Shown here one piece after another: positions 44,436 to 59,644 of a stretch of DNA of 64,000 nt. The position numbers and the translations under genes are program-made. This DNA comes from a bacterium (GTDB lineage: Bacteria > JAAXHH01): positions 3,651,059 through 3,715,058 of the forward strand of contig OY843748.1 in NCBI GenBank assembly GCA_963693015.1. The letters run 5' to 3'. Each line of letters starts with the position of its first letter. Position 1 is the stretch's first letter. The notes below the pieces were generated by a model. That model was not told where the DNA came from. It worked only from the letters and a program-made list of their open reading frames with translations, and did not search any database.

Positions 44436-45716
44436 ATGATACGGCCGGGCGCTGAATCGTTGCGGAAGATCGCGGTCATCGGACAGGGAACCGCGGGCTC
44501 CCTGGCGGCCGCCAGTGTAACGCGTCTTCTCTCCGACGACGACCACGAACTGCATCACATCTACGACTCGCGCATTCCGGTCATCGGCGTGGGCGAAGGC
44601 AGTTGGCCGAGTCTGGTACAGGAACTGCACCAGCTGACGAATCTGCCCCACGCAACCGTCCAGCGGCGCTTGAACGGAACCCGCAAGTACGGCGTCGCAT
44701 TCGAGGGATGGGGGTGCCGCAGCCGGGATTTCACCCACTACTTCACGCCGCAACAGGTATCCTATGCCTACCATTTGTCCGCCGACGTGCTGGCGGAGCT
44801 GTTGCGCGAAAGCACGCGCGCGCGCCACGTCGACGCGAACGTGCGCGACATCAAAACCCTGGAGGACGGCGCGCAAGTCGAGTTCGACGGCCGGGCGCCG
44901 GAACGCTACGACCTGGTCTTCGATGCGCGCGGATTCCCGAAAGAACTCCATCCCGACCGGCACATCGACATTTCCTTCATTCCCACCAATACGGCCGTCA
45001 TCCGGCGCTGCCCGGCCGTCATCGCGGAAGAGCGGGACGGGCCGGTCGTGAAGCATACCTACACCCGTGCCGTTGCACGTCCCCACGGCTGGATATTCGT
45101 CATTCCGCTGACGGTGCACACCTCCTACGGGTACATCTTCAACCGCGATATATCCAGCCTCGAAGAAGTCGAATCGGACTTCGACGCCTTCCTTGAAGCC
45201 GATGGCGTGCCGGAATTCGAGCAGCGCGCCGTCATTCCGTTTCCCAACTTCATCCATCGCCGGATCTACGATGGCGCCGTGGCCCGCGTTGGCAACGCGG
45301 CGGCCTTCATGGAGCCCCTGGAGGCCACGGCGATCGTATCTGCCCAGCTGCAAATCGGGATGGTGTTGCAGACGCGTCTGAACCGGCCGGCAGAGCATCT
45401 CGCGCCCGACGCGCCGGTGGTCAACCGGTTTCTCGTCGACAACATGCTCTGCTACGGCCTGTTCGTCGGCTGGCACTATTGCCGTGGCTCCAGGTACGAC
45501 ACCACGTTCTGGCGTCACGCCCGAAACGACGTGTGGCCCCGTCACCGCGACGCGGCAGCGCCCGAGGCGGTGGATTGCGCCGCACTCGGCAAATTCGATG
45601 GGATGTTCGAGCTACTGAATCAACCGGTCATCGACAAATCGGATTGGGACCGGATGTGCGCGGTACCGCTTACCAGCTACGCCCAGGTGTCCCAGGGGCT
45701 GGGCTGCCAAAAGTGA
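44436..45716 (+). CDS. flavin-dependent halogenase (tryptophan-halogenase family, PF04820-like)
   Basis: N-terminal KIAVIGQGTAGSLAA (GxGxxG) and the GWIFVIPL motif (the WxWxIP signature of FADH2-dependent halogenases). Size is about 426 aa. Confidence 0.8.
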   Translation: MIRPGAESLRKIAVIGQGTAGSLAAASVTRLLSDDDHELHHIYDSRIPVIGVGEGSWPSLVQELHQLTNLPHATVQRRLNGTRKYGVAFEGWGCRSRDFTHYFTPQQVSYAYHLSADVLAELLRESTRARHVDANVRDIKTLEDGAQVEFDGRAPERYDLVFDARGFPKELHPDRHIDISFIPTNTAVIRRCPAVIAEERDGPVVKHTYTRAVARPHGWIFVIPLTVHTSYGYIFNRDISSLEEVESDFDAFLEADGVPEFEQRAVIPFPNFIHRRIYDGAVARVGNAAAFMEPLEATAIVSAQLQIGMVLQTRLNRPAEHLAPDAPVVNRFLVDNMLCYGLFVGWHYCRGSRYDTTFWRHARNDVWPRHRDAAAPEAVDCAALGKFDGMFELLNQPVIDKSDWDRMCAVPLTSYAQVSQGLGCQK

Positions 45717-45809
45717 CATTACTTGATTCGGGATGCGTATAACTTCATATTATATATCTAAATAAAGTAGTTTTGACTTGCTCGACAACCGGGAGGCATT
45801 GCTACAGTC

Positions 45810-46514
45810 GTGTTCAACAATCCATTAAACTCATTCCATGATACCGTTGCCGAAGCGAAGGAAGAGCGGGAACAGCTCGACCGGTTGCTGACGATTTCCA
45901 CGCCGCGGGAGCGTCTGCTCGTCGTCGCGATCGCGGTTGTGCTGTGCGTCACGCTGGCATGGCTTTTCTATGGCAGCGTAGCGCATAGTATTGCGGTGGA
46001 CGGCGTACTGTCCGCATCCGGGCTAGTCGAAGCCCCGTCCGGTCAAGTCGAAGTCCCGGCCGAGCGGGGCGAAAACGGGTCCGTTCAAGTCGAAGCCCCT
46101 GCCGGGCAAGGCGAAAAATCGACCGTTCAAGTCGAAGCCCCTGCCGGGCAAGGCGAAAAATCGACCGTTCAAGTCGAAGCCCCGGCCGAAGGCAGCCGGT
46201 CCGTGCAGGCCCTCGCCTGGATCGACGGCGGTATCGCGCCGCAGATCGAAGCCGGGATGCCGGTGGTGATCGAGCCGGATCCGGCAGATGGAGAACCCGG
46301 CGCGCTGGGCGGAACGGTCCGGGCGATCTCCGCCGTGCCCTTTGCCGGGGCGCTGGCGGCCTTCGAATCCGGGGCGCCGGCGTCCGTGCACCGTATCGAT
46401 ATCGCCCTCGAAGAGAGTCTTGATCCGGATTCCCTTGCGGGCAGGAAATGCCGGATCGTCATCGAGCTGGGCAGGCAATCTCCGATCACGCTGTTTCGAA
46501 TGAGGCGGCCATAG
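45810..46514 (+). CDS. HlyD-like membrane-fusion/secretion protein, unusually short (NHLM bacteriocin-system type)
   Basis: Cytoplasmic N-terminus, a single TM (LLVVAIAVVLCVTLAWLFYG) and a C-terminal beta-rich region. The coiled-coil region is replaced by VQVEAPAGQGEKST repeats. Start is a GTG. Confidence 0.55.
   Translation: MFNNPLNSFHDTVAEAKEEREQLDRLLTISTPRERLLVVAIAVVLCVTLAWLFYGSVAHSIAVDGVLSASGLVEAPSGQVEVPAERGENGSVQVEAPAGQGEKSTVQVEAPAGQGEKSTVQVEAPAEGSRSVQALAWIDGGIAPQIEAGMPVVIEPDPADGEPGALGGTVRAISAVPFAGALAAFESGAPASVHRIDIALEESLDPDSLAGRKCRIVIELGRQSPITLFRMRRP
46039..46206. repeat. 42-bp tandem repeat x4 (two perfect copies) encoding (S)VQVEAPAGQGEKST
   Basis: Seen directly. Perfect copies are 46081-46122 and 46123-46164. 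Confidence 0.85.
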
Positions 46515-46588
46515 GATGTCGAAGCGCATATCCACGGCCAGGCGTCGAAGCGCCAGGTCCTCCAGAACTCGAATGAGGCAACCATAGG

Positions 46589-48802
46589 ATGTCGACGAGC
46601 ACCTCCAGGGGAGCCAGAGGCAAGGCCTCCTCGGATAAATCAGACCAGCGGGTAACCACGCCGATTCTGTTGCAGATGCACGCTTCAGAATGCGGCGCCG
46701 CCTGTCTGGGCATCGTACTGGCCCACTTCGGGAGATGGGTACCGCTTACCGAACTGCGCGAGAAATGCGAGGTGAGCCGGGACGGCAGCAGCGCCGCAAG
46801 CATCCTGCGTGCCTCCAGGCACTATGGGCTCGAATGCAACGGGCTCAGCGTACGCGTCGATCAACTGCACATGCTGCCGTTGCCCCTGATCCTGTTCTGG
46901 CAGTTCAGCCATTTCGTCGTCCTCGAGGGATTCGATGGCCGTAACTTCTACCTCAACGACCCTGCCACGGGACGCCGCCGCCTTTCCGCCGAAGAGTTCG
47001 AGTCGGGCTACAGCGGCATAGCGCTTCGCTTCAAGCGCGGCAAAGACTTCGAGTCCGGTGGCGAGCAGCCCGACTTGTTCCGGCAACTGGGCGCCTTGCT
47101 CGCCGGATCGTGGAGATCGCTTGCCGGGGTGTTTGCCTGCGGACTCATGTTGACGTTGCTGACGCTGATCATTCCCGCGTCGATCGGTGCCTTCGTCGAC
47201 GACGTCATGGAAACGCAAGGGGCCTGGGGCGGTTTGGTGACCGCCCTGCTTGGCGGCGGCGCCCTGGTATACGTCCTTTCCCTGCTCAAGAACCGGTTCC
47301 TCAAGCGGCTCGCGGTCAGGGTGTCGGTGACCGGCTACAGCCGCGGGATGTCGCGGCTGCTGCGGTTGCCGGTGGAGTTTTTCGAACACAGGCTGACGGG
47401 CGATCTGACCGACCGGGTCTCGTCCACCGACCGGATCGCGAAGAACCTGGCGGACCAGTTCCTGGTGCTCATCATCGACGTGGCCATGAGCCTGGTGTTC
47501 CTCGCGGCGATGTTCGCCTTCGACGTCCTGCTCACGCTGATCGTGCTTTTGCTGGCGCTGCTGCACGGTCTGCTGGCCCACTTCCTCAACGCCCTTCGGG
47601 CCGTTCGAAGTCAGGCGATGCGGCGCGAGCAGGGACTGCTGATCGGCCTCGGCATGCAGATGCTGAGTCACGCCGACAATCTGCGCATGACGGGCGCGGA
47701 CGATCGGTTTTTCTCGCGCTGGAGCGGTCAACAGGCCCGCGAACTGCGCGCGCGCCAGCTCTATGCCGAACTGGGCGCCGTCAATACCTCGCTTCCGGGC
47801 CTGGTCGACGCCCTGCGCAGCGCGGCGATACTCGCCATCGGCGGCAGCATGGTCCTGAACGGAGCCATGACCCTGGGGACGCTGGTCGCCTTCTACATCC
47901 TGGCGGAGATGTTCCTGACGCCCGTCGAGCGCTTCCTGGCCTTCGCCGAAAACCGCCAGGCGCTCGAAACCGATCTGCAACGACTCGAGGACGTCTCCAG
48001 GACCGATGAAGATCCCGTTTTCAGCCGCAGAAGCCAGGAGTCGGAATCGGTCCCCACGTTCAACGGCCGGCTCCAACTCGCGGGCCAGCTCGAACTGCGG
48101 AACGTCACCTTCGGTTTCAACAGGAGCCGGCCGCCCCTGATAAAGGACTTCAACCTCGTGATCAAGCCGGGACAGCGGGTCGCCGTGGTCGGTCCCAGCG
48201 GTTCCGGCAAGTCGACGCTGGCGCGGCTGGTTTCGGGGGTCTATCAGCCCTGGTCGGGCGAAATCCTGTTCGACGAGGGCCATCTGCGGGATCAGATCCC
48301 GGAGGAAGTGCTGCGGCAGTCCATATCCATGGTGGATCAGGAGGTCGTGCTCTTCTCCGCGTCCCTGCGCGACAATATCACGCTGTGGAACCCGGCCGTT
48401 CCGGATGAAGTCCTCTTCGCCGCGACGCGGGACGCCCGGATCCACGACGAAATCCTGGTCAGACCGCAGGGATACGCGTCCCTCGTCGAAGAAGGCGGGG
48501 CGAATTTCAGCGGCGGCCAGCGGCAACGGCTGGAAATCGCCCGCGCGCTGGTGGGGAACCCGACGGTGCTCATTCTGGACGAGGCCACCAGCGCCCTCGA
48601 TGCCGCGACGGAGGAATACGTCGACGATGCCCTGCGGCGTCGCGGCGTCACCTGCCTGATCGTGGCGCACCGGCTGAGCACCGTGCGGGACTGCGATGAG
48701 ATCATCGTGCTCGACAAAGGCGCCACCGTGCAACGCGGCACGCACGACGAGTTGATCGCGGATCGGAACGGCGCCTACTACAACCTGGTCAGATCGAACT
48801 GA
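46589..48802 (+). CDS. peptidase-C39 domain ABC exporter (double-glycine leader-cleaving bacteriocin/RiPP transporter)
   Basis: N-terminal QMHASECGAACLGIVL (C39 catalytic Cys) and HFVVLEGFDG (His). Six TM helices, Walker A GPSGSGKST and signature LSGGQRQRLEIARAL. Confidence 0.85.
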   Translation: MSTSTSRGARGKASSDKSDQRVTTPILLQMHASECGAACLGIVLAHFGRWVPLTELREKCEVSRDGSSAASILRASRHYGLECNGLSVRVDQLHMLPLPLILFWQFSHFVVLEGFDGRNFYLNDPATGRRRLSAEEFESGYSGIALRFKRGKDFESGGEQPDLFRQLGALLAGSWRSLAGVFACGLMLTLLTLIIPASIGAFVDDVMETQGAWGGLVTALLGGGALVYVLSLLKNRFLKRLAVRVSVTGYSRGMSRLLRLPVEFFEHRLTGDLTDRVSSTDRIAKNLADQFLVLIIDVAMSLVFLAAMFAFDVLLTLIVLLLALLHGLLAHFLNALRAVRSQAMRREQGLLIGLGMQMLSHADNLRMTGADDRFFSRWSGQQARELRARQLYAELGAVNTSLPGLVDALRSAAILAIGGSMVLNGAMTLGTLVAFYILAEMFLTPVERFLAFAENRQALETDLQRLEDVSRTDEDPVFSRRSQESESVPTFNGRLQLAGQLELRNVTFGFNRSRPPLIKDFNLVIKPGQRVAVVGPSGSGKSTLARLVSGVYQPWSGEILFDEGHLRDQIPEEVLRQSISMVDQEVVLFSASLRDNITLWNPAVPDEVLFAATRDARIHDEILVRPQGYASLVEEGGANFSGGQRQRLEIARALVGNPTVLILDEATSALDAATEEYVDDALRRRGVTCLIVAHRLSTVRDCDEIIVLDKGATVQRGTHDELIADRNGAYYNLVRSN

Positions 48803-48830
48803 CGCGGCAAACGGAGCCGGAATACAGACC

Positions 48831-51797
48831 ATGCCGGAATACACGTCCATAGCCGAACTCGCCGCCCGCTTCGGCGAGTCCGTGCCCTGCGCGGGCAACC
48901 TGCCGGTCGAACTCGTCGACCCGGAGAGCGTCTGGTTCATCGATCAGGGCGCCGTCAATCTGTTCCTGGTCGAATTCAGGGACGGGGTGGAACAGGCCGC
49001 GCCCCAGCATCTGCTGCGCCGGGAATCGGGCTGGTTGCTGCCGGGTGTCGCGCCGGACCGGGGGGACAGCGACGAAGACACCACGCTCAGCATCATCGCC
49101 AAGGGACTGCCGGGCACCCTGCTGAAACGTCTGCCGGCCGCCTTGCTGTCCCGGGTACGTCCGTCGGAACTGGCGGAACAGACCGATACCTGGCTGACCG
49201 CCATTACCGAGACGCTGGCGCGTTACGCGATTCCCCTTCCCCGGCCGGATGCGCTGGCCGAACCCGGCCTGACGCAGACCCTGGCCCCGTGTACGCTATC
49301 CGTACGGCGCGGCGTGGCATGGGTTACCGAACCGCCGTCCGGCGCAAGCCTGTACATGGGTATCGTAGACTACGCGGACAGTGCGGGAGCGAGCGGCCCC
49401 CATGGTCCGGGCGGTCCGCACGGCCCGCACGACGCGGTCGTTCCGCTGACGCGGACGAGCTGGCTCACCTTGACCGACGAGGCGACGCTGACAGGCCAAT
49501 CCACTGAAACGCTGGCGGAGCAAGGCGTGCTGCTGCCCGCCCTCGCCGCTTTTCACGCGGTTGCCTTCACCCTGGAACGCCTGAACCGCCGACTGGTCGT
49601 GGTCGACGCCGTCAATCTCGAACGCGCGCAGATCGCCAGCCGCCGCACGGCCGAGAAAACCGCCCGGCAGCGGCTCTACAATATCTATGACCGTCCGTCC
49701 GGCCGGGATGCCGGCATTGAGGACACGGCACTGACGGATGCCCTGAAGCTCGTCGGCCGCCATGAAGGCATCGATTTCAAGATTCCGGCGCCGTCGGGCC
49801 AGGCCGATGCTCGGGTCGGCCTCGTCGACGTTCTTGAAGCGTCGGGCGTGCGGGCCCGGCGCGTGCGATTCAAAGACGAGGGCAGCTGGTGGCGCGGCGA
49901 CAGCGGAGCGATGCTGGCGTTCCGCGCCGGGGACGGCCAGCCCGTGGCGCTGCTGCCGGGCATGTTCGGACGGTACCGGGAAGTCGACCCGGTCACCAAG
50001 CGGAGCGTCCGGGTTACGGCGGCCCGCCTGGACGGCGCGGGCAAACTGGCGGATGAAGCCTGGACGTTCTATCGGCCCTTGCCGCCGGGGGACGTGAAAC
50101 CGGCGGATCTGCTGAGAATCGCCCTGCACGGCGCGGCTCCGGATCACGTACGGCTGGTCATGGCCGGGCTTCCGGGCGGCCTGATCAAACTGCTGCCGGC
50201 GATCGCCCTCGGGTTCGTTGCCCATCAGGTATCGGCGGGCGGCAGCGCGGGAACGCTCTATGCCGTCGCCGTGGCGGTGGCGGCCTTCGGCCTGCTCGGC
50301 GCATTGCTGCACCTGCTTCAGAGCACGGCGATGATGCGGCTCGAAGGGCGCTCCGGCTCCCGGGTCGAAGCGGCCTTCTGGGACCGTCTCATGCGCCTTC
50401 CCTCAAGCACGCTGCACCGACATCCGGCCGGCGATCTGGCGATGACGGGCATGACGTTCCAGCATCTTCGCGACGGCCTGCAGGGCGTCGTCGCCAACGG
50501 CTTTCTGTCGATCATCTTCCTCCTTCCGGTTTTTGGCGTCATCTTCTTCTACGATGCCGCCCTCGGTGTCATCACCCTCGCCTTCAGCCTGGTTTCGCTG
50601 CTGGTCACCGTCGTACTGGGGTTGCGCCAGATTTCGCCTTACGGGTGGATGATTACCGCGTCGCGTCGCGTGGCCGGCCGGCTGTTCCAGATCGTGGGCG
50701 GCATCTCCAAGCTGCGCATGGATAACGCGGAAGGGTCGGCTTACGCCATCTGGGCGAAGCACTATCGCGAGCAGAAGCGCGCGGAGATCGAACTCGGGGC
50801 GCTGGAAGGCCATTCGCGGGCCCTTGGCGCCGCCCTTCCCTTTCTTGCCGGCGGGGTGCTGCTTTACGCGGTGGCATCGGGGGGAGACCGGAACGTTCCG
50901 GTCGGCGATTTTCTCGTCGTCTACATCGTCTTCATCGTCTTCCAGTCCGCCATCGCCCGGCTCGGCGAGTCCTTCGGCGCCATTGCCGCGATGCTGCCGT
51001 CCTTCCAACAGATGCGCCCGATGCTCTCGGCGGTTCCTGAAACCGGGACCGAGGGCGAGCCGGTCGAATATCTGGGCGGCGACATATTGTTCGACCGCGT
51101 TTCCTTCCGCTACGATCCCGATGGTCCGTTGATACTCGACGACGTCACAATTCGCGCCCATCCCGGCGAATTCGTCGCCATTGCCGGTGAATCCGGCGCC
51201 GGCAAGAGCACCCTGTTCCGGCTCGCCCTCGGTATCGACTGGCCGACCGCCGGCGCGGTGTATTACGACGGACGCGACCTGCGGCACCTGAATCTGAAGC
51301 AGGTGCGCCGCAAGATCGGCGCGGTGCCGCAATCCATCGGCCTTCATCCTCAGGATCTGTGGGACAATCTGGTCAGCCACCACGATGCCGTGACGACCGA
51401 GGAAGTCTGGGCGGCGGCCCGGACCGCCGAAGTCGAAGCCCAGATCAAGGACATGCCCATGGGCATGATGACCATGGTGGGCGCCAGCGGGTCCGTCCTG
51501 TCGGGCGGCGAGAGCCAGCGCATCGCAATCGCCCGCTCGGTGATCGGCAACCCGCGAATCATGCTGTTCGACGAGGCGACGAACTGGCTGGACAACGAAA
51601 ACCAGTCCAGGGTCATGGGGAACATCGCCGGCCTGACTTCCACCCGCCTCGTCATCGCCCACCGCCTGTCCACGCTGGAACAGGCCGACCGCATCTACGT
51701 GCTGCAGGCCGGGCGAGTCGTGCAAAGCGGTTCCTTTACGGAACTTATGGAGGCCGACGGGGTATTCAAAGAGCTGATCAGAAGGCAGATCGCCTGA
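48831..51797 (+). CDS. NHLM-type bacteriocin ABC exporter, ATP-binding/permease protein with long N-terminal domain
   Basis: About 480-aa N-terminal non-transporter region, then 6 TM, Walker A GESGAGKST and signature LSGGESQRIAIARS. Its pairing with a C39-ABC and an HlyD matches the TIGR03794/03796/03797 trio architecture. Confidence 0.7.
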   Translation: MPEYTSIAELAARFGESVPCAGNLPVELVDPESVWFIDQGAVNLFLVEFRDGVEQAAPQHLLRRESGWLLPGVAPDRGDSDEDTTLSIIAKGLPGTLLKRLPAALLSRVRPSELAEQTDTWLTAITETLARYAIPLPRPDALAEPGLTQTLAPCTLSVRRGVAWVTEPPSGASLYMGIVDYADSAGASGPHGPGGPHGPHDAVVPLTRTSWLTLTDEATLTGQSTETLAEQGVLLPALAAFHAVAFTLERLNRRLVVVDAVNLERAQIASRRTAEKTARQRLYNIYDRPSGRDAGIEDTALTDALKLVGRHEGIDFKIPAPSGQADARVGLVDVLEASGVRARRVRFKDEGSWWRGDSGAMLAFRAGDGQPVALLPGMFGRYREVDPVTKRSVRVTAARLDGAGKLADEAWTFYRPLPPGDVKPADLLRIALHGAAPDHVRLVMAGLPGGLIKLLPAIALGFVAHQVSAGGSAGTLYAVAVAVAAFGLLGALLHLLQSTAMMRLEGRSGSRVEAAFWDRLMRLPSSTLHRHPAGDLAMTGMTFQHLRDGLQGVVANGFLSIIFLLPVFGVIFFYDAALGVITLAFSLVSLLVTVVLGLRQISPYGWMITASRRVAGRLFQIVGGISKLRMDNAEGSAYAIWAKHYREQKRAEIELGALEGHSRALGAALPFLAGGVLLYAVASGGDRNVPVGDFLVVYIVFIVFQSAIARLGESFGAIAAMLPSFQQMRPMLSAVPETGTEGEPVEYLGGDILFDRVSFRYDPDGPLILDDVTIRAHPGEFVAIAGESGAGKSTLFRLALGIDWPTAGAVYYDGRDLRHLNLKQVRRKIGAVPQSIGLHPQDLWDNLVSHHDAVTTEEVWAAARTAEVEAQIKDMPMGMMTMVGASGSVLSGGESQRIAIARSVIGNPRIMLFDEATNWLDNENQSRVMGNIAGLTSTRLVIAHRLSTLEQADRIYVLQAGRVVQSGSFTELMEADGVFKELIRRQIA

Positions 51798-51851: not shown

Positions 51852-53168
51852 GTGAAAACGGAGTGGAAAACGATGAAGAAGCCCTTTGACGTGACGGGTT
51901 ACCTGCAGTCGCGTGCCGACGACGACCACGACTTCCGGGAACGTCTTCTCGCCAGGCCCAGGGAAACCATCGAAGAGGAATTCGGCGTGACGATGGCCAG
52001 AGACCATGAGATTCACGTCCACGAAGAATCCTATGCTTCGACGCACGTTGTCCTGCCGCCGCGTAGCAAATACACCAAGGCGGAACAGGAAGAAGCGAGA
52101 ACCGGCGCGGCCTCGCTCGAGTTCCTTCGCAAGACGATGTCCGATCCCGCGCCGCCCCTGCGTCCGCCCGCGGGTGAAGGGGAAAGCGTTTCCGGATTCT
52201 CCGGTACCCCCGAGGCGCTTGCAGACGCGGCCAGAGAGCGCATCCGCCGCGGCCTCGTCTTCCTGGAATCCGCCATAGACGAAAGGGGCGCCTGGCACTG
52301 TATCCGATTCAACGTGGGCGACCCGAATATCCCGCGGCATTTCGAAAGACCCGCCTTCATATCGGCTTACTGCGTCCTTGCCCTGGAGTATTGCCGGGAG
52401 GCGCGGGCCCGGTCCATCTGCGCCGCGGCCAGGGCGTATCTTGCCGACACCATCGAATACCCCGGATTCTGGCGCTATTACCGCCATCTGCCCCAGGATC
52501 TCGACAGCACCACGCTTTCTTCGCTTGTGATTGGAACGCACCCCTGGATCCTGCTGGAGCGAAACGTTCCGCGGATACTGGCGAATCGCGACGGGGAAGG
52601 CCGTTTCATGACCTGGGTGCTGACGGAAGACGAACCCGACGTCGTGTCGCGCTTTCGCATCGAAGCCGACCCCGTCGTCAATGCGAACGTCATCGCCTAT
52701 CTCGGCGACCGCCCGGAAACCAGGGAAGCGCAGCGATGGCTGGAAGCGCTGGTAGCCGAAGGCGATCTCGCGGGGTCGTCCAAATGGTATCCCGACGAGG
52801 TGGCCATCTACTATGCGATCGCCCGCGCCATGGGTCGCGCCGAGCCCGCGCTGAGTGGCCTGCGCCCGGTACTCGCGGACCGTGTCCTCGGCTTGCAGGA
52901 CGACAGTGGAGATTTCGGCAACGTCCTTCAGACCGCCCAGGCCGTGTCGGTGCTCCACGAAGTCGGACGCCTTGACCGCATCGACGCGAAACGCCAGGCG
53001 GAAAGACTCTTATGTTCCCAGCGCGAGGACGGCAGCTGGCCGGAACTCCTCGCCTTTGGAGACCAATCGTTGAAGTGGGGCGCAGTAGGACAGATCGGAC
53101 ACGGATCCGAAGCCGTGACCTCTGCGTTCTGTATCGAAGCGCTCGAGCGCCTCGTCACGTACCTGTGA
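51852..53168 (+). CDS. NHLP-type leader domain fused to prenyltransferase/terpene-cyclase-like alpha/alpha-toroid domain
   Basis: Residues 20-70 (DHDFRERLLARPRETIEEEFGVTMARDHEIHVHEESYASTHVVLPP) align position-by-position with the precursor at 59393-59644 and with the NHLP consensus. The C-terminal 350 aa carry QxxDGSW-like repeats (QREDGSWPE, LQDDSGDFGN, NRDGEGRF). Confidence 0.6.
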   Translation: MKTEWKTMKKPFDVTGYLQSRADDDHDFRERLLARPRETIEEEFGVTMARDHEIHVHEESYASTHVVLPPRSKYTKAEQEEARTGAASLEFLRKTMSDPAPPLRPPAGEGESVSGFSGTPEALADAARERIRRGLVFLESAIDERGAWHCIRFNVGDPNIPRHFERPAFISAYCVLALEYCREARARSICAAARAYLADTIEYPGFWRYYRHLPQDLDSTTLSSLVIGTHPWILLERNVPRILANRDGEGRFMTWVLTEDEPDVVSRFRIEADPVVNANVIAYLGDRPETREAQRWLEALVAEGDLAGSSKWYPDEVAIYYAIARAMGRAEPALSGLRPVLADRVLGLQDDSGDFGNVLQTAQAVSVLHEVGRLDRIDAKRQAERLLCSQREDGSWPELLAFGDQSLKWGAVGQIGHGSEAVTSAFCIEALERLVTYL

Positions 53169-53253: not shown

Positions 53254-55653
53254 ATGTCACAGCACAGTTCTGCGGTAATCACCGGCGCCGATCCGGGCAA
53301 CGCCGACGCCACGCGGCAGATCGAACCGTCCATGCTGACGGCCCTCCCCCATTATCTGCCGCTCGGCGTCTTTCCCTTGATCATCCTCGCCGCGCTGAAT
53401 GGCGGCTGGTGGTTGCTGCCGCCCATCGTCTTCATGAGCCTTTCCTGGTCCTTCGACCGGGTATTCGGCCGCGACGGACGCAACATGGATCCGTGGAGCA
53501 CGCCGAAACACCGGCTGATCTGGCACAATCTCCCGGTCTGGACTTGGGCGTTCCTGTGGCCGCCGACGCTCATTTTCGGCGTCTGGCAGATCCTGGTGGC
53601 GGGTCAGTTCGCTCTGTGGGAAAATGCGCTGCTGGCGATCGTACTGACGATGGAAGCCCAGGCCGTATTCGTCGTCGGCCACGAACTGATCCACCGGCGC
53701 ACGTCCTGGGAACGCCGGATCGGCGAATTCCTGCTTTCCTCCTGTTCCTATCCGCAGTATGCCACGGAACACGTGTATATCCATCACGCGCTGGTCGGCA
53801 CGCCCCACGACGTGGGGTCCGCGCCAAAGGGCGAGAGTTTCTGGAAATACATGCCCAAGGAAATCATCAGCAACCTCGTCAATTCCTGGGAAGTCGCAAA
53901 AGATCGCCTTGGGCGCCGCCGCCTGACCATGTGGCATTACAGCAATCCCTTCTGGCGCTACGGCATCGGGGTCGCCTTCTGGTACGGTCTGGTTTTCTGG
54001 ATGGGCGGCATATGGGCCGTTCCGGTCTTTGCCTTCCTCGGCCTTTCCTGCGTCTTTTCCATGAAGATCAGCAATTACTTCCAGCACTACGGCCTGCGGC
54101 GGGTCCGCCTCGAAAACGGCCGCTGGGAGAAGATCATGCCACGGCATTCCTGGAGCGCGGACTGGAAGTTCAGCAACTGGATGCTGTTCAACGCCCAGCG
54201 CCACGCGGATCATCACGCCGTGGCGTCCCGCCAGTATCCCCTGCTCCAGGTCGGCAGCCACGACGAATCGCCGGAACTGCCGGGCACCTACGCCGATATG
54301 ATGAACATCGTCCTGCGGCCCAAATGCTGGTTCGAGAAGATGGACCCGCTGGTAGACCAGTGGCGGAAGCACTTCTACCCGGATATCGAGGACTGGAGTC
54401 CCTACGACAGCCCGCTTGCCGCCGCGCGGCCCGACGCCTTCGACGCGATCGTCGAGATCTTCGGCGCCGCCCCGCGGCTCGCGAAACGGATCGAGCAGAA
54501 CCCGGAACTGCTGGACAACCTGCAGGACCAGGAATTCCTCGATCTCGACCTGCCGAAGGGATTCGGGGAGGATGAAGAGTTCGAAGCGATCGCGCGGCGC
54601 GGACTTGCGAGAGTGTACTGGACGTACGAAATGGGCGTTCGGGAAATGAAGGACCTGATCGTCGAGCTGCCCGTGGTCGATGCCGGGGAAACCGCTGAGA
54701 TCGTGCGGAACTGGTCGAACGACAGGGCGTTCCAGATCGGCATGCACGTGGTGCGGGGCAACCTGTTGCCGGCGGAAGCGGGGACCGCGCTGTCGAATCT
54801 GGCCGAAGCGTCGATTTCGACCGTGCTTGCCTCCGTGGTTGCGGATTTTACCGAGCGGTACGGATCGCAGAGCGTGGGTGACGTCGCCGCGGTCTTCCTG
54901 GGCGACCTGGCCAGCCGCGAGGCATATCCCGGCATTGCGATGGATATGATGTTTGTCCATGACGGCCGGGAGTCCGGCGAGAACGAACGCATGTGCCGGA
55001 GTTTCCGAAAGGCCCTGGCCGACCTGGCGCAGGACAACCTGTTGTTCGCCCCGATCAGCCCCGATCCGGATTCCATTCCCTCGATGCAGCTTTCGGAACT
55101 GGCCGAGGGTGCTGGTGGTTCGACTTCCGGTGAAGTCCCCGTCCTCACCAGGGCGCGGTGCGTGTTCGAGCCTGACGGTTCCGACATGGGCGGCCGCTTC
55201 GACGAGGCGCGCCGTGAAATCCTGGCCGGGAGCGGCGCGAATGAGTCCCTTGTCGCCTGGTCGAGCGAGCAGCCGGAGGACCGCGCCGAGACGAGCGTGT
55301 CCACCTACGCCCGGGTGCGCGGCGGACTGGACGACGTGGAGCGGACCGCGCGATACCTTCAGCTGGTCCATGGCGGAACCCGCCTCGAAGAACCGGCGCC
55401 GACCGCCGCCGCGGTGTTCGAAGCCGCCGGCGACGAGCCGCTGGCGCAGGCGGCGAAACTGTGGCGGGACCTCCAGGGCGCCATGCGCCTGGTCGGCGAG
55501 GACGGATTTGAACTGGAGGAGGCGGGGCCGAAGGTCAGATCGCTTGTCGCGAAGGCCTGCGGGCAGGACGATTTCGATGGGTTGACGGCGGAGGTCGCCG
55601 AAACCGCGTCCCGCGCGGCCGCCCGGATCGAAGCCCTTGTTGCACGCCCATGA
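53254..55653 (+). CDS. AlkB-type integral-membrane di-iron hydroxylase fused to GlnE-like nucleotidyltransferase/helical domain
   Basis: N-terminal 400 aa: HELIHRR, EHVYIHHALVGTPHD, NYFQHYGL and NAQRHADHHAVASRQY, which match AlkB HELGHK / EHNRGHH / NYIEHYGL / LQRHSDHHA. C-terminal 400 aa: NPELLDNLQD ... VAAVFLGDLASREAYPGIAMDMMFVHDG resembles the GlnE adenylyltransferase core (GKLGGRELxxxSDLDLIF), with the second Asp replaced. RBS AAGGAGG upstream. Confidence 0.7.
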   Translation: MSQHSSAVITGADPGNADATRQIEPSMLTALPHYLPLGVFPLIILAALNGGWWLLPPIVFMSLSWSFDRVFGRDGRNMDPWSTPKHRLIWHNLPVWTWAFLWPPTLIFGVWQILVAGQFALWENALLAIVLTMEAQAVFVVGHELIHRRTSWERRIGEFLLSSCSYPQYATEHVYIHHALVGTPHDVGSAPKGESFWKYMPKEIISNLVNSWEVAKDRLGRRRLTMWHYSNPFWRYGIGVAFWYGLVFWMGGIWAVPVFAFLGLSCVFSMKISNYFQHYGLRRVRLENGRWEKIMPRHSWSADWKFSNWMLFNAQRHADHHAVASRQYPLLQVGSHDESPELPGTYADMMNIVLRPKCWFEKMDPLVDQWRKHFYPDIEDWSPYDSPLAAARPDAFDAIVEIFGAAPRLAKRIEQNPELLDNLQDQEFLDLDLPKGFGEDEEFEAIARRGLARVYWTYEMGVREMKDLIVELPVVDAGETAEIVRNWSNDRAFQIGMHVVRGNLLPAEAGTALSNLAEASISTVLASVVADFTERYGSQSVGDVAAVFLGDLASREAYPGIAMDMMFVHDGRESGENERMCRSFRKALADLAQDNLLFAPISPDPDSIPSMQLSELAEGAGGSTSGEVPVLTRARCVFEPDGSDMGGRFDEARREILAGSGANESLVAWSSEQPEDRAETSVSTYARVRGGLDDVERTARYLQLVHGGTRLEEPAPTAAAVFEAAGDEPLAQAAKLWRDLQGAMRLVGEDGFELEEAGPKVRSLVAKACGQDDFDGLTAEVAETASRAAARIEALVARP

Positions 55654-58139
55654 AGGTACCTGCCGGGCAGACGCCGAATCCCCGGATGCCGGGGCAGACG
55701 AAGACGGATTCTCCACGGGGGATATTAACTAGAACGACGCCTGCGGACCGCGGCAGCGTCGAGCTTCCCGCCCTCGCTCCGCACCTGGTCTGCCACGTCA
55801 TCGGCGAGCAGCAGACGCTCCTGGTTTCCGAGTCCTTCGATACGTTGCTGCACGGCGGCCTGTATTGCGACCTGCTTCCGCTTCTCGACGGCCGGCGTCC
55901 ACTGGCCGGGATCGTAGCCGGTCTGGAGGGCCGCCATACGGCCGCCCGTGTCGAAGCGGCCGTTGCTTCGCTCGCCGACAGGGGCTACGTCGTCTCCGCC
56001 GACTACGGCATGGACCGATCCCGGGCGGCCTACTGGTCGTCCCTCGGCGCGTCGCCCCGATGGGCCGAACAACGGCTGTCGGAATCGTCCGTCGCGGTCG
56101 AAGGCGACGACGGCCGGCTGGCATGTCACCTGGAAGCACGCGGCGCCGGTGTGGCGGCAGACGAGCCCGACTCGAGCGGCGCCGGTATGAAGGCAGACGA
56201 GCCCGACTCCAGCGGTGCGGGTGTGGCGGCAGACGAGCCCGACTCCAGCGGCACCGGTATGAAGGCAGATGAGCCCCGGCTCACGGTAATCGTCTGCGAC
56301 GATTATCTCGAACCACGATTCGCAGCGGTGAATCGGCGCCGTCTCGAGAAGAAAGCGCCGTGGACGCTGGTGCGGCCCCGCGGCATGGAGCCGCTGTTTG
56401 GCCCCGTCTTCCGCGCGGACGCAGACGGGCCCTGCTGGGACTGCCTGGCTACCCGGCTGCGCAGCCATAAGGAGGTGCACGATTTCCTGCGCCACGTTGC
56501 CGGCGAGGATGCCGCATTCAAGCCCTTCGCCGCCGAACCCGCGGTGCTGGAAGCGGTCTACGGCCTGATCGCGGCGGAGATCGTCAAATGGCTGGTGCTG
56601 GATGGGGCGGCCCCGATCCACGATCAGGCGATCTCGATGAATGTGGGCGAATTCGCCGTCTCGAAGCATCCGGTCATGCGCCGGCCGCAATGCCCGGCCT
56701 GCGGCGATGAAGCCTTGCATCGTCCGGATCGGCCGCCGGCGCCCCTGCGCCTGAATCCGAGTCCCAAGCCCCATCGCAACAGCGGCGGCGCGCGGGCCGT
56801 GGCGCCGGAAGCCACTCTGGCGAAATACCGCCACCTGGTGAGCCCGGTCAGCGGCGTCGTAACCTGGCTGAAGCGCACGACCAGTGAGCGCGACGCCTGG
56901 CTCCACGTCCACTGGGCCGGAAGCAATCCGGCCATGCGAAGCCGGAGCCTGAGTTCGCTCAGACGCAGCCTCCGCAGCAAGAGCGCCGGCAAGGGCAGCA
57001 CGGGGGAACAGTCCGAGGTCAGCGCCCTCTGCGAGGCGATCGAGCGTTATTCGGGCGCCCGTTGCGGAGACGAAATCCGCATCCGCCGGCGATTCGTCGA
57101 TTTCGCCGAAGAAGACGAGGCCATCCATCCCAACGACGTGCAGCTGTTCAGCGACCATCAGCTGGACAACGCGGAAAGCATCAACGCGGAAGGCCACCCC
57201 TACAACGTCGTCCCGCCGCGCCTCGATCCCGAAGCCGAGCTCGACTGGACCCCCGCGTGGTCGTTCACGCAGGGCCGGCACCGGTATCTGCCGACCTCGA
57301 TGCTCTACGGCACGTCGGCCGAACAGCGCGGAAGTACCGATCTGATCGCCGATTCCAACGGTTGCGCCGCGGGCAACACCCTGGAAGAGGCCATCCTGCA
57401 GGGGTTCTACGAACTGGTCGAGCGCGATGCCTTCGCCATCTGGTGGTACAACGGACTGCGCGTACCCGGAGTCGATCTTGCCAGCTTCGGCGACGAATTC
57501 CTGGCATCTGCCGAGGATTACTACGGCCGCCATGAGCGGGAAGTGTGGATGCTCGACGTGACTTCCGATCTGGGCATTCCGTCCTTCGTCGCCCTCTCGC
57601 GCAGGCCGGACGGGGATACCGAGGATATCATATACGGCGCCGGCGCCCACGCCGACCCGCGCCTGGCGGCCCTGCGCGCGGTCTGTGAGCTGAACCAGTG
57701 CCTTACCTGGTTGCCGCGTCCCGGGGGGAGCGACGGCCCGCCTGGCCGGCCTGACCGGTCTGGCCGACCCATGATCGACGATCCATTTGCCCTTCGCTGG
57801 TGGCAGACGGCTCGAATCGCCGACTGCTCCTGGCTGGTGCCGGAACCGGAGGCGCCGCTCAGGCAAGGCGCCCGGTATCCGGCGATCGAAACCGAGGACA
57901 CGCGCGACGACGTGGAACGATTCAGGGCACTGGTCGAGGCCCGGGGCATGGAGTTCCTGGTGCTGGACCAGACCCGGCCGGATATCGGCATGCCGGTCGT
58001 GCGGGTCATCGTGCCGGGCATGCGCCATTTCTGGGCGCGGTTCGCCCCCGGGCGCCTGTACGACGTGCCCGTCGCCATGGGGCGCCGCGATCGCCCGCTG
58101 GCCGAAGGCGATCTGAATCCCGCACCGGTAATCGCGTAA
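55650..58139 (+). CDS. fused RRE/E1-like docking domain + YcaO cyclodehydratase (thiazole/oxazole-forming, PatD/TruD/SagCD-type)
   Basis: E1-like PLFGPVFRADADGPCWDCLATRLRSH ... CPACG (tetrathiolate Zn site). YcaO: KYRHLVSPVSGVV ... SALCEAIERYSG ... SNGCAAGNTLEEAILQGFYELVERDA, with a Pro-rich C-terminus. The start overlaps the upstream stop (ATGA). Confidence 0.85.
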   Translation: MKVPAGQTPNPRMPGQTKTDSPRGILTRTTPADRGSVELPALAPHLVCHVIGEQQTLLVSESFDTLLHGGLYCDLLPLLDGRRPLAGIVAGLEGRHTAARVEAAVASLADRGYVVSADYGMDRSRAAYWSSLGASPRWAEQRLSESSVAVEGDDGRLACHLEARGAGVAADEPDSSGAGMKADEPDSSGAGVAADEPDSSGTGMKADEPRLTVIVCDDYLEPRFAAVNRRRLEKKAPWTLVRPRGMEPLFGPVFRADADGPCWDCLATRLRSHKEVHDFLRHVAGEDAAFKPFAAEPAVLEAVYGLIAAEIVKWLVLDGAAPIHDQAISMNVGEFAVSKHPVMRRPQCPACGDEALHRPDRPPAPLRLNPSPKPHRNSGGARAVAPEATLAKYRHLVSPVSGVVTWLKRTTSERDAWLHVHWAGSNPAMRSRSLSSLRRSLRSKSAGKGSTGEQSEVSALCEAIERYSGARCGDEIRIRRRFVDFAEEDEAIHPNDVQLFSDHQLDNAESINAEGHPYNVVPPRLDPEAELDWTPAWSFTQGRHRYLPTSMLYGTSAEQRGSTDLIADSNGCAAGNTLEEAILQGFYELVERDAFAIWWYNGLRVPGVDLASFGDEFLASAEDYYGRHEREVWMLDVTSDLGIPSFVALSRRPDGDTEDIIYGAGAHADPRLAALRAVCELNQCLTWLPRPGGSDGPPGRPDRSGRPMIDDPFALRWWQTARIADCSWLVPEPEAPLRQGARYPAIETEDTRDDVERFRALVEARGMEFLVLDQTRPDIGMPVVRVIVPGMRHFWARFAPGRLYDVPVAMGRRDRPLAEGDLNPAPVIA
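56142..56276. repeat. 36-bp tandem repeat x3.75 encoding acidic GAG(V/M)(A/K)ADEPDSS linker between RRE and E1-like domains
   Basis: Seen directly, alternating VAA/MKA variants. Confidence 0.85.
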
Positions 58140-58148
58140 GGAGGCGGA

Positions 58149-59267
58149 ATGAATATCGACGAAGCCGTTCTGCTTACCCAGGATCGTCTCGCCGAAGAGG
58201 GCGGCACGCTGGCGGAATTGCTCGGGCGCTTCAGGAGCCGGGTTTCACCGAGCCTTATCGGGGAGCGGGAATGGACGCTCATACTGGAACGCGCAAAGCA
58301 ACTCCCCATCTCCATGGGCGCCCAGCCCTTCGGCTTTGAATTGCCGCTCCATGACAGCCGGCCCGTGGCGGATTTCGGCGTCTCGCTGGCGAGCGGGAAC
58401 CGGTCAGGCAATTTCTATGAAGCGCGGGCGCGAACGGACGAGACGGACGAGACCGCAAGTGCGGTCGGTCGGCTGTTCGCGGAAATGGAAGCCCGGGACT
58501 CGCCGCTGCGGGAGATCGTGGGACGCAAGCTGATGCTGGAGTATGACATCGGCTCGGCGCACGGGAACAAGGCGTCGCTGCCTGGGTTGTTCCTGCGGCC
58601 CAACGAACGCACCTTGTCCGGTGGCGGAGGCCTTGCGCGTGACGTCGGGATCGTGGTTGACGCCCTGGTTTCCAGCGTCGGCTGGGAAAGGATCGACGCC
58701 GAACGGAAAAACGTCGAGCGGGTCTACCTGGCGCAGCCCGACGACACGCGCATGGATTCCTTCGGCGTATTCCCGTCCCGGGAACGAACGATCCGCCTGG
58801 CGGTCATGGGCTTCAACGGACAGGAGGCCCTCTGTTCTTATCTGGAAGCCACCGACTGGCCGGGGCGTATTTCGGCTGTCGAGTCCGTGATTTCACGCTT
58901 GAAGGAACGGGCGGATATCGTGAGTACGGGTGTGAATATCGACGTGCGGGCAGACGGACTGGGGCCGACGCTCGGCCTTACGCCCATCGTCAAGCAGAGA
59001 TATACGAATGACAGCCGCTACTGGATCGACGGCCAGACCGATTGGGAGCCTATCCTCGAAGCCCTGAGGTATGAGGACTGCGTCGTACCGGAGAAGCTTG
59101 CGGCGCTCGGCGACTGGGCGTCGAAACCGACCACGCTGTTTGGCCGTACCGGCCCCTTCGTCATGTTACGCGGCATACATCACGTAAAGCTGGTCATATC
59201 CGGAAACAGACTGGAGAAGGTCAAGGCCTATCTCTACATGGTGCTTTCCGGAGCGCTCTCGATTTAA
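58149..59267 (+). CDS. hypothetical protein (372 aa), last gene of the RiPP-like operon
   Basis: Protein-like composition, 10-bp gap to the YcaO gene. No motif recognised by eye. Confidence 0.5.
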   Translation: MNIDEAVLLTQDRLAEEGGTLAELLGRFRSRVSPSLIGEREWTLILERAKQLPISMGAQPFGFELPLHDSRPVADFGVSLASGNRSGNFYEARARTDETDETASAVGRLFAEMEARDSPLREIVGRKLMLEYDIGSAHGNKASLPGLFLRPNERTLSGGGGLARDVGIVVDALVSSVGWERIDAERKNVERVYLAQPDDTRMDSFGVFPSRERTIRLAVMGFNGQEALCSYLEATDWPGRISAVESVISRLKERADIVSTGVNIDVRADGLGPTLGLTPIVKQRYTNDSRYWIDGQTDWEPILEALRYEDCVVPEKLAALGDWASKPTTLFGRTGPFVMLRGIHHVKLVISGNRLEKVKAYLYMVLSGALSI

Positions 59268-59298
59268 GCGCTTCAAGCGCAACTTCGGGAACCCGACG

Positions 59299-59337
59299 CA
59301 AAAATCCCCCCGACCAGGTTGATCGGAGGGATTTTTT
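59299..59337. terminator. bidirectional Rho-independent terminator (GC stem flanked by A-tract and T-tract)
   Basis: gcaaaaatcccccc-gaccaggttgatc-ggagggatttttt. It lies between the convergent genes ending at 59267 (+) and 59393 (-). Confidence 0.6.
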
Positions 59338-59392
59338 GACCTGCTCAATCATGCGAACGCCGGGCGTCCGCATGCGAACCGGTGTCTCTGGC

Positions 59393-59644
59393 CTACCAGC
59401 AGCAGCAAAGGCCGGCAGAAACGGCTTCGAGTTGCTCCTCGGTGATATTCGGATCCGGGGGCAACGCGATGTGCACCGTCTGCATATCGCTTTCGTGGAC
59501 CTGGATCGTCATCGATTCAGGCATCGTAATGTCCAACTCCTCGCAAATGACCGACTTCGGATCTGCGATCAATTTCTGCCTGAAATCTGCGTCCAGGGCG
59601 GACTTGTCCACAATCTGCTTCAGCATTTCGTCGCCACTTCTCAT
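59393..59644 (-). CDS. NHLP (nitrile-hydratase leader peptide) family RiPP precursor; predicted core LCCCW
   Basis: MRSGDEMLKQIVDKSALDADFRQKLIADPKSVICEELDITMPESMTIQVHESDMQTVHIALPPDPNITEEQLEAVSAG-LCCCW. The leader matches the NHLP consensus (DxxFRxxLxxDPxxxxxEELxxxxPExxxIxVHExxxxxxHIxLPP ... LExVxAG). Strong RBS AGGGAGG 6 nt upstream, and ATG start. Confidence 0.8.
   Translation of the reverse strand: MRSGDEMLKQIVDKSALDADFRQKLIADPKSVICEELDITMPESMTIQVHESDMQTVHIALPPDPNITEEQLEAVSAGLCCCW

Follow-up and report, generated by a model that had tools for sequence, protein, structure and literature searches.

The window, a stretch of 64,000 nucleotides, contains eight co-directional genes on the plus strand and a convergent 252-bp precursor gene on the minus strand. 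The genes are spaced by -4 to about 93 nt; 125 nt lie between the last plus-strand gene and the precursor gene beyond it. The sequence-only reading had counted nine co-directional genes, one too many, and had given gaps of -4 to 94 bp and a precursor 126 bp downstream, which is nearly what was measured; the open reading frames lie where it had placed them and carry the domains it had named. On its flanks, this copy of the cluster has an inserted defence island and a transposase remnant. When species-representative genomes were scanned, they yielded 255 related loci, the best 80 of which were fetched and compared. All nine genes recur in these best 80 of 255 loci, with a conserved order of toroid / AlkB::GlnE / YcaO / 372-aa / precursor. 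The arrangement is far beyond chance, since the same genes are found together again in these loci. The related loci stem from metagenome-assembled genomes, which represent at least nine groups at phylum or class level, one locus being from record Spongia_Bin9, and the best 80, spread over many phyla, encode toroid proteins with 70-84% identity.

The convergent gene (59393..59644, minus strand) encodes an 83-aa NHLP (proteusin) precursor, an orthologue of SrpE from the srp (sponge-derived RiPP proteusin) biosynthetic gene cluster (BGC). In a profile search with TIGR03793 (NHLP leader) it scored 63.7 bits, above the 50.9-bit cut-off, and it shows 78% identity to the published SrpE, whose LCCCW core and AG boundary it shares. 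The proposal of a RiPP cluster with an NHLP precursor and a minimal core is borne out by these values. The leader ends in PPDPNITEEQLEAVSAG, giving the boundary SAG|LCCCW, and AG is the double-glycine-type leader/core boundary of SrpE (supplement of PMC10286304). LCCCW is the core in 62 of the 63 precursors from the best 80 of 255 loci. The srp precursors have been described as encoded by a 252-bp gene and carrying an ITEEQL motif, and the 252-bp gene as transcribed disproportionately highly (bioRxiv 10.1101/2023.06.09.544420); the window precursor agrees in length and motif. A weakly evidenced promoter-like site, TTGACT-17-TATATT (59716..59744, minus strand), lies about 70 nt upstream of the precursor ATG with 10 of 12 consensus matches, two sites of this type having been found against 0.8 expected. 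Such a promoter would fit the reported high transcription.

Two of the plus-strand genes encode the enzymes whose chemistry is known from srp. The first (44436..45716) is a flavin-dependent peptidyl-Trp halogenase (Trp_halogenase PF04820, E 4.8e-46) that is 79% identical over its full length to the published brominase SrpI (supplement of PMC10286304). It retains K84, Y102 and Y110 at the SrpI positions; in SrpI, Lys84 is catalytic, and Tyr102 and Tyr110 undergo self-bromination (PMC10286304). SrpI brominates the C-terminal Trp, and on chimeric substrates this reaction was reconstituted from SrpI and cofactor-regenerating enzymes alone (PMC10858898, PMC10286304). The second (55650..58139, plus strand) is the SrpC orthologue, which combines a wHTH (RRE-like) domain (PF21084) with E1-like and YcaO domains. 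TIGR03882 matches at 141 bits, above its cut-off, TIGR03604 at 281 bits against a cut-off of 219, and PF02624 at 310 bits. The E1-like (C) and YcaO (D) domains and the three core Cys are features of TOMM or linear azol(in)e systems. Orthology to SrpC rests on these domains and on synteny, which holds in 71 of the best 80 of 255 loci, whereas SrpE and SrpI were compared directly with the published sequences. The linker of the YcaO gene contains a 36-nt tandem repeat (56140-56276).

[quoted passage not shown] Thiazolines rather than thiazoles had been predicted from the absence of an evident azoline dehydrogenase, and the prediction agrees with these published orthologue experiments. Profile searches found no FMN azoline dehydrogenase of the SagB/McbC type among the cluster proteins of the window, and none recurs in the best 80 of 255 related loci. 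The halogenase and the fused E1-like/YcaO cyclodehydratase had likewise been recognised correctly.

Three genes between the halogenase and the toroid gene, all on the plus strand, make up the export system. The short HlyD-like membrane-fusion protein (45810..46514) matches TIGR03794 over its N-terminal 53 aa only, at 37 bits, far under the 156-bit cut-off. It is the least conserved gene of the cluster, with 39-71% identity in 50 of the best 80 of 255 loci, and it contains an in-frame 42-nt tandem repeat (46039-46188); this repeat and that of the YcaO gene are lineage-specific and in frame. The C39-peptidase ABC transporter (46589..48802) lies just above the cut-off of TIGR03796 (857 against 853 bits), matches PF03412 at 3e-34 and has its C39 Cys inside the motif QMHASECGAAC. 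The second NHLP-system ABC transporter (permease/ATPase; 48831..51797) has TIGR03797 as its best match, with 651 bits over residues 299-987, under the cut-off of 709 bits, and carries an N-terminal extension of about 300 aa. Candidates for all three genes of the postulated export trio are present, and only TIGR03796 passes its cut-off. Judging by family membership, the C39 transporter presumably cuts off the leader behind SAG, and the second ABC protein and the short HlyD would take part with it in exporting the product. In 26 of the best 80 of 255 loci, an MMPL/sterol-sensing-domain transporter adjoins the cluster, an observation that was counted towards a lipid-like product.

The region very probably represents the published srp BGC in an ordinary and complete form. 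This assignment is based on the SrpI and SrpE orthologues (79% and 78% identical), the same LCCCW core and the retention of K84, Y102 and Y110. The srp BGC, with its LCCCW precursor, cyclodehydratase and brominase, is carried by marine-sponge bacteria of many phyla and was described by Nguyen et al., JACS 2021 (143:10221), as cited in PMC10858898. It was followed up between 2022 and 2025, with work on SrpI and SrpE (PMC10286304, PMC10858898); other studies dealt with how it is distributed among sponge microbiomes (PMC9426513) and with its very strong expression (bioRxiv 10.1101/2023.06.09.544420). The window and srp share the 83-aa precursor length, the core, the halogenase with its catalytic Lys, the YcaO cyclodehydratase, the NHLP export genes, the ITEEQL variant of the L(x)4L motif and the spread over many bacterial phyla, and there is no difference of substance. 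The letters SrpA (toroid), SrpB (AlkB::GlnE) and SrpD (372-aa protein) probably apply, as assigned from gene order.

The cluster is therefore of an already known kind and represents no new RiPP class. The sequence-only reading had proposed an undescribed class in which YcaO, halogenase, AlkB-like and toroid enzymes would act together on the core LCCCW, and the gene combination is indeed unusual; the accessory genes are without an assigned function in the srp follow-up literature, which speaks of "several genes of unknown function" (PMC11832590). That proposal now has almost no probability left, being already refuted by the publication of the same cluster in 2021 and by the identities to SrpE and SrpI. 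A related system is the mpr BGC of Methylovulum psychrotolerans, which, as far as it is described through PMC10286304, also has a proteusin precursor and azolines made by an RRE-bearing YcaO (MprC). According to the same description, it differs from srp in its FMN azoline oxidase MprD, which gives azoles and for which srp has no gene, and in its ten varied precursors with longer cores.

By predicted fold, the products of the three accessory genes resemble a terpene cyclase, a membrane oxidase and a prenyltransferase. The toroid gene (51852..53168, plus strand; likely start ATG 51873, with public gene calls giving 431 aa) encodes an NHLP-leader-like domain fused to a monodomain alpha/alpha toroid resembling class II terpene cyclases. 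Its N-terminal domain scores 37.6 bits with TIGR03793, under the 50.9-bit cut-off, and is 35% identical to the precursor leader, and the toroid part gives weak SQHop_cyclase matches. The AF2 model (pLDDT 74, mostly 85-95 in the toroid part) shows an alpha/alpha-toroid fold of the beta or gamma domain type. The fusion postulated earlier is confirmed, but the nearest resemblance of the protein is to class II terpene cyclases and not to prenyltransferase beta subunits. Its putative acid motif is an invariant DLDST, which, compared with DxDD, retains the first and middle Asp and has Ser in place of the third. This motif aligns with the canonical form, DVDDT, of a standalone relative (38% identical) that has no NHLP domain and whose gene lies directly upstream of, and overlaps, a prenyltransferase-like gene. 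In another relative, the toroid C-terminus is joined to a prenyltransferase-like protein. Only one QW-like repeat is detectable (QTAQA...QREDGSWPE), aligning with residues 555-593 of squalene-hopene cyclase (SHC). Known monodomain class II terpene cyclases (MstE 6sbb, the "prenylcyclase" 6ij1 and bacterial drimenyl-diphosphate/drimenol synthases) are only 14-22% identical and differ in the third Asp, in having no fused leader-like domain and in the presumed peptide substrate of the window protein, for which the cyclase role is a prediction.

The next gene (53254..55653, plus strand) encodes an AlkB-type membrane di-iron oxidase (FA_desaturase/AlkB PF00487, 1.4e-25; PDB 8f6t AlkB, E 2.6e-45) fused to a GlnE-like domain (PF03710, 5e-6). 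All superfamily motifs (HExxH, EHxxxHH, HYG and RHxxHH) are present, and the His boxes HELxHRR, EHxYxHH, NYxQHYG and QRHxDHH, aligned with 8f6t, are kept in 65 orthologues. In the AlkB-rubredoxin fusion 8f6t, as in other AlkB alkane monooxygenases, the likeness concerns the membrane di-iron domain; the C-terminal partner in the window is GlnE-like instead of rubredoxin, and the context is a RiPP cluster. The fusion and its AlkB part are as previously read, but the GlnE-like nucleotidyltransferase site is degenerate, the first Asp of DxD being lost in most orthologues. The DxD of the motif G-x(9-13)-DxD reads AMD at residues 562-564 in the window, and just 8 of 66 sequences carry D or E at both positions. 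A 44%-identical relative retains the full motif (DLD); it comes from a sister cluster with an RCCC core, which has YcaO, AlkB::GlnE and two prenyltransferase-like genes and is devoid of Trp, halogenase and toroid. A YcaO/toroid/prenyltransferase-like cluster with Cys-free cores has no AlkB::GlnE, and this gene was not found within 10 kb in some srp loci among the best 80 of 255.

The 372-aa protein (58149..59267, plus strand) has no match in Pfam, NCBIfam or PDB sequence searches, nor do 33 orthologues or 10 distant relatives match Pfam or NCBIfam. Its AF2 model (pLDDT 81, pTM 0.84) is a predicted ABBA (aromatic prenyltransferase) barrel, and all 50 Foldseek matches with E up to 1e-3 are ABBA prenyltransferases. 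The earlier suggestion that this protein might be the missing azoline oxidase finds no support in this model. The family comprises 766 clusters at 50% identity and keeps E64, E131, D133, R211, K316, H345, K347 and Y361. Like the ABBA/DMATS prenyltransferases, including the cyanobactin F-type (MpnD, CymD, 6-DMATS, PagF, PatF), it is predicted to form an alpha-beta-beta-alpha barrel of similar size with conserved acidic, basic and Tyr residues on predicted strands; it differs in its 8-14% identity to them, in the lack of a Pfam match in the members tested and in its association with NHLP precursors. Distant relatives adjoin NHLP precursors with the short aromatic cores FYY, RGGNW, FTSVGGPIW, FTTGNNPLW and YSFNEPW, and beside the FYY-core precursor and its exporters, the relative is the only tailoring gene. 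One relative lies on record NGUY21-1_SAMN17524323_METAG. The core of the RCCC cluster has no aromatic residue, so that Trp is not necessarily the prenyl acceptor.

The proposed pathway begins with steps shown for orthologues in the literature: SrpE is bound via its leader and the three Cys of LCCCW are cyclodehydrated by SrpC to thiazolines. The 372-aa protein may be an ABBA-type peptide prenyltransferase that attaches a lipid to the short core, the Trp indole being the simplest site; the NHLP-fused toroid would be a class II terpene cyclase acting on the prenyl chain; and the AlkB-like di-iron enzyme would oxidise the lipid part or desaturate thiazolines to thiazoles. This chain from prenyltransferase to terpene cyclase to AlkB step, drawn from predicted folds and gene neighbourhoods, is proposed tentatively, at somewhat less than an even chance. 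For the prenyltransferase and the cyclase, the assignment is built on AlphaFold models and on sequence identities of 8-22%, and the cluster contains no prenyl-diphosphate synthase. A precedent is the mpp BGC of Moorena producens (MppE, MppM, MppI, MppC; PMC12715784 and, as far as it covers the cluster, PMC11791876), which resembles srp in its long structured leader (Nif11/NHLP type) and leader-dependent Trp brominase. There, MppC is a leader-dependent ABBA Trp geranyltransferase (PMC12715784) acting on the indole, whereas prenylation in srp is only inferred, and the peptide brominase MppI belongs to the same cluster as MppC (PMC12615548). Unlike srp, mpp makes a lanthipeptide by LanM and not a YcaO azoline peptide, and it has no terpene-cyclase-like or AlkB-like gene; MppC is also recognisable as an ABBA prenyltransferase by sequence, which the srp protein is not.

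The accessory proteins may instead leave the peptide chemically unmodified, so that the product is a brominated tri-thiazoline pentapeptide and the toroid, GlnE-like and 372-aa proteins serve as scaffolds, chaperones, immunity factors or regulators. The NHLP-like domain points to binding, for example docking on the precursor's partners, the GlnE-like dyad is degenerate, and the cyclase motif is DLDS, not DxDD. PatF is among the structural matches of the 372-aa protein and shows that an ABBA barrel can lack catalytic activity. The chemistry of SrpC and SrpI was, moreover, obtained without the accessory genes (PMC10858898, PMC10286304). A non-catalytic role is nevertheless rather unlikely: across many phyla the proteins keep 65-87% identity, the His boxes of AlkB do not vary, the 372-aa family retains the eight residues named above, and one of its members is the sole tailoring gene beside an NHLP precursor and exporters.

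Two further alternatives concern single enzymes. The AlkB-like domain could be the missing azoline oxidase, converting thiazolines to thiazoles in place of SagB/McbC, and not act on a lipid tail. This would agree with the lack of an FMN dehydrogenase in the cluster and of a recurrent one in the 80 loci, with PF00487 being a desaturase/hydroxylase superfamily, and with AlkB::GlnE being kept in the RCCC/YcaO cluster but not where cores lack Cys. That correlation comes from two cluster types only, however, and the closest solved relatives are alkane omega-hydroxylases; the RCCC cluster retains two prenyltransferase-like genes, leaving a lipid substrate possible, and the gene is absent from some srp loci, so that this role, too, is judged doubtful. 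It is improbable that the toroid protein is itself cargo of the C39 transporter, cleaved and secreted, with the cyclase acting outside the cytoplasm. Its leader-like domain does align with the precursor (TG|AAS against AG|LCC), with an invariant G78 at the position of the AG cleavage site and a nearly invariant A79. Yet PCATs are unlikely to carry a folded toroid of 320 aa, the L(x)4L motif has another residue in place of its second Leu, and one relative works without any NHLP domain.

The pathway of prenylation, cyclisation and oxidation was set against the srp follow-up literature, in which neither a prenylated srp product nor the word "prenyltransferase" nor a function for the three accessory genes was found; the JACS 2021 original may already propose part of it. 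A prenylated, possibly cyclised srp product is plausible but unproven. In its full form, held with slightly less confidence than the chain of steps, the proposal is that the cryptic srp product is a RiPP-terpenoid hybrid: the 372-aa proteins would be a sequence-orphan clade of ABBA peptide prenyltransferases for NHLP (proteusin) precursors with very short cores, the toroid would cyclise the peptide-bound prenyl chain, and the AlkB-like enzyme would oxidise the result. If true, the still-cryptic natural product would be a lipidated (terpenoid) bromo-tri-thiazol(in)e pentapeptide.

By sequence, the cluster in the window is the srp BGC, a proteusin cluster derived from sponges and first described in 2021 (Nguyen et al., JACS 2021, doi 10.1021/jacs.1c03474). 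Its halogenase (44436-45716, plus strand) is 79% identical to SrpI over the full length, and the published Lys84, Tyr102 and Tyr110 are all in place. The precursor, encoded on the minus strand (59393-59644; 252 bp, MRSGDEMLKQIVDKSALDADFRQKLIADPKSVICEELDITMPESMTIQVHESDMQTVHIALPPDPNITEEQLEAVSAGLCCCW), matches SrpE at 78% identity and has the same core and AG boundary (reference SrpE leader and SrpI sequences from the supplement of PMC10286304). It also shares its gene length, LCCCW core and ITEEQL motif with the 252-bp NHLP precursor gene that was the top-transcribed RiPP gene in a metatranscriptome of four sponges, where RiPP clusters encoding srp-type precursors belonged to the top-transcribed BGCs (bioRxiv 10.1101/2023.06.09.544420). 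The assignment to srp follows from these identities together with the match to the transcribed precursor. In orthologues, SrpC introduces three thiazolines under leader guidance and SrpI brominates the C-terminal Trp (PMC10858898, PMC10286304). Across sponge species, srp is one of the clusters listed as conserved (PMC9426513).

The sequence-only reading had thus observed the gene set correctly, but its claim of an undescribed RiPP class is wrong: this cluster family was published in 2021 and has been widely surveyed, and the window holds an ordinary member of it. Reportedly, SrpI acts as a Trp-6-brominase and has no chlorinase activity; the product is said to be called cryptic in the original JACS 2021 paper. 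The reviews searched on srp give no functions for the srp genes. The letters A for the toroid gene, B for the AlkB::GlnE gene, D for the 372-aa gene and F-H for the export genes are presumably the right ones, since they fit the published C (YcaO), E (precursor) and I (halogenase).

According to the ORF list and translations, eight genes run co-directionally on the plus strand (44436-59267) with intergenic gaps of -4 to about 93 nt. The precursor gene is convergent to them; the co-directional run with its precursor therefore stands as first proposed, whereas the count of nine becomes eight plus the precursor. Profile searches recovered each of the domains claimed for these genes. The halogenase matches Trp_halogenase (PF04820, 4.8e-46), and the precursor scores 63.7 bits against the NHLP leader model, above its cut-off of 50.9. 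All three export genes lie on the plus strand: a short HlyD protein (45810-46514), whose TIGR03794 match is confined to the N-terminal 53 aa; a C39-peptidase ABC transporter (46589-48802; TIGR03796, 857 bits, above cut-off); and a second ABC protein (48831-51797), with TIGR03797 as its best match at 651 bits, below cut-off. They are followed on the same strand by the toroid protein (51852-53168), whose NHLP-like N-terminus is followed by weak squalene-cyclase repeats, the AlkB::GlnE fusion (53254-55653), in which an FA_desaturase/AlkB domain precedes a GlnE match, the YcaO protein (55650-58139), composed of wHTH, E1-like (TIGR03882) and YcaO (TIGR03604, PF02624) domains, and the 372-aa protein (58149-59267), which matches no family. 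In-frame tandem repeats occur in the HlyD gene (46039-46188; 3.6 copies of a 42-nt unit, VQVEAPAGQGEKST) and in the wHTH/E1-like linker of the YcaO gene (56140-56276; 3.8 copies of a 36-nt unit, ADEPDSSGAGMK).

With the toroid protein as query and one genome per species, 255 related loci were found, the best 80 of which are 70-84% identical to it. The host MAGs of these 80 are labelled Latescibacterota, Nitrospirales, Gemmatimonadota, Bryobacterales/Terriglobia, Binatia, Nitrospinota, and Alpha-, Gamma- and Deltaproteobacteria. When all nine window proteins were compared with the 80 loci by tblastn, many loci being cut by contig ends, the 372-aa protein was detected in 72, YcaO in 71, AlkB::GlnE in 65, the two ABC genes in 55-56, and the halogenase and HlyD in 50 each. 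The order toroid, AlkB::GlnE, YcaO, 372-aa and convergent precursor is retained in most of them. The expected co-conservation of the precursor was borne out: 63 precursors were found across the 80 loci, 62 ending in LCCCW and one in LSCCW. In seven Nitrospirales loci (L002, L004, L005, L007, L009, L010 and L016), the halogenase gene lies directly upstream of the toroid gene, and no export trio is present within 10 kb upstream.

The 372-aa protein has no sequence relatives of known function in Pfam, NCBIfam or PDB sequences. Pfam searches with 33 orthologues (E up to 10) and with 10 distant relatives also gave no match, and its close homologues, at least 899, are all named merely "hypothetical protein". 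An AlphaFold model built from 34 sequences (pLDDT 81, pTM 0.84) shows a repeated alpha-beta-beta-alpha pattern, and ABBA prenyltransferases account for all 50 Foldseek matches at E up to 1e-3. This predicted fold speaks against the azoline oxidase role that had been suggested for the protein, and that idea was rejected. In a profile search against 1.84 billion representatives, it falls into a wider family of 766 clusters (E up to 1e-3), across which E64, E131, D133, R211, W237, W299, K316, H345, K347 and Y361 are conserved, a residue mix of the kind expected for a diphosphate-binding barrel.

Five distant family members share 25-29% identity with the window protein, and each of them lies in an NHLP cluster. 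In one distant cluster with the three-residue core FYY, the prenyltransferase-like gene is the sole tailoring gene and adjoins the export trio; another has the core RGGNW and a prenyltransferase-like gene. A further cluster combines three precursors (ending in FTSVGGPIW, FTTGNNPLW and YSFNEPW) with YcaO and a standalone toroid gene bearing a DVDDT motif, and yet another pairs an FAD oxidase with three precursors whose cores contain Trp or Tyr. The FYY-core and three-Trp-ending-precursor clusters correspond to the loci L087/L088 (7535-9089) and L083 (2853-9092). The sister cluster L089 (BPAM22-1_SAMN08953362_METAG-scaffold_1823) has an RCCC core, YcaO, an AlkB::GlnE orthologue, two prenyltransferase-like paralogues of the 372-aa protein, the second sharing 34% identity with the one in the window, and an MPAB_Lcp_cat protein; halogenase and toroid genes are both absent. 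The mpp cluster offers a direct precedent for the prenyltransferase reading: its ABBA enzyme MppC geranylates Trp at C5 in a leader-dependent manner (PMC12715784). The same cluster encodes a brominase, MppI, which acts on a macrocyclic lanthipeptide (PMC12615548).

The first 80 or so residues of the toroid protein share 35% identity with the precursor leader, and this domain also matches nitrile hydratase alpha and the MprE7 NHLP structure. The rest of the protein has a confident predicted model. One QW-like motif aligns with squalene-hopene cyclase; a toroid-domain profile run against PDB sequences recovered this QW-like stretch alone, and yielded no sequence alignment of the DxDD region with solved cyclases. 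The invariant DLDST (D216 and D218 in the 438-aa ORF) lines up with the canonical class II acid motif, DVDDT, of a standalone relative that is 38% identical and whose gene overlaps a prenyltransferase-like gene. In another family member, the gene call joins the toroid C-terminus to a prenyltransferase-like protein. Genes of the cyclase-like and prenyltransferase-like kinds thus co-occur in at least three cluster types.

The N-terminal half of the AlkB::GlnE fusion matches solved AlkB (8f6t, E 2.6e-45) with all four His motifs aligned, and these are conserved in 65 orthologues. The nucleotidyltransferase motif of the GlnE part reads GIAMDM here versus SDLDL, and the two acidic residues are kept in 8 of 66 sequences; DLD is intact in the orthologue of the RCCC sister cluster, which is 44% identical. 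The GlnE-like domain in srp is probably no longer a nucleotidyltransferase.

Family membership suggests that the C39 ABC system would cleave after SAG and export the product. The 372-aa protein may prenylate the peptide, most simply on the indole, the toroid enzyme may cyclise the prenyl chain, and the AlkB domain may oxidise the lipid or the thiazolines; these three steps are drawn wholly from predicted folds. As had been proposed, profile searches found no SagB/McbC-type azoline dehydrogenase among the cluster proteins. All-against-all ORF clustering of the 80 loci revealed no hidden azoline dehydrogenase, flavin reductase or prenyl-diphosphate synthase, and returned shadow ORFs and an MMPL transporter only. 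This MMPL/sterol-sensing-domain RND transporter (about 780 aa) adjoins the cluster in 26 of the 80 loci, the window being without it, which fits a lipid-like product. It is 82-90% identical between loci (e.g., L066:1606-3960, L030:17767-20442 and L043:12962-15304), and in several loci the second ABC gene stands beside it as a fragment only. Against the terpenoid steps, however, the literature consulted here contains no prenylated srp product, and the RCCC cluster lacks an aromatic acceptor. The DLDS acid motif counts against the cyclase step, and the absence of AlkB::GlnE from some loci counts against the AlkB step.

The window flanks comprise an aminotransferase at 35139-37640 and, at 60583-63800, an SSF symporter and an NHL protein. 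Their DNA shares 84-88% identity with the flanks of several loci labelled Gemmatimonadota or Latescibacterota; within that lineage, the cluster therefore occupies a fixed chromosomal site. Directly upstream of the cluster, a low-GC island (37836-44105; 50-56% GC versus about 63%) holds defence genes, encoding an Avs2 protein of 1429 aa (PADLOC PDLC02164, 1133 bits) and a HEC-01A/HEC-01B pair (AAA_21 ATPase and DUF4276). It is an insertion, because the aminotransferase gene abuts the halogenase gene in related genomes. The related locus L037 carries the HEC-01 pair only. A 163-aa DUF772 transposase fragment (59817-60308, minus strand) between the precursor and symporter genes is another small insertion, bordering the cluster, since this gap is about 940 nt in the window versus about 235 nt in the related locus L027. 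Positions 1-36000 hold ordinary metabolic and transport genes, including a metallo-beta-lactamase-fold protein, a peptide/nickel-type ABC permease and binding protein, a sulfatase and aminotransferases, along with several large ORFs without a Pfam match (e.g., 32702-36148; 1148 aa, in a stretch of 70% GC).

The srp clusters are among the most widely distributed RiPP clusters in sponge microbiomes. What is of interest beyond the known cluster class is its unassigned genes and its product. The predicted prenyltransferase-like, class II cyclase-like and intact AlkB assignments supply concrete masses and co-expression sets, and could help reveal the srp product.
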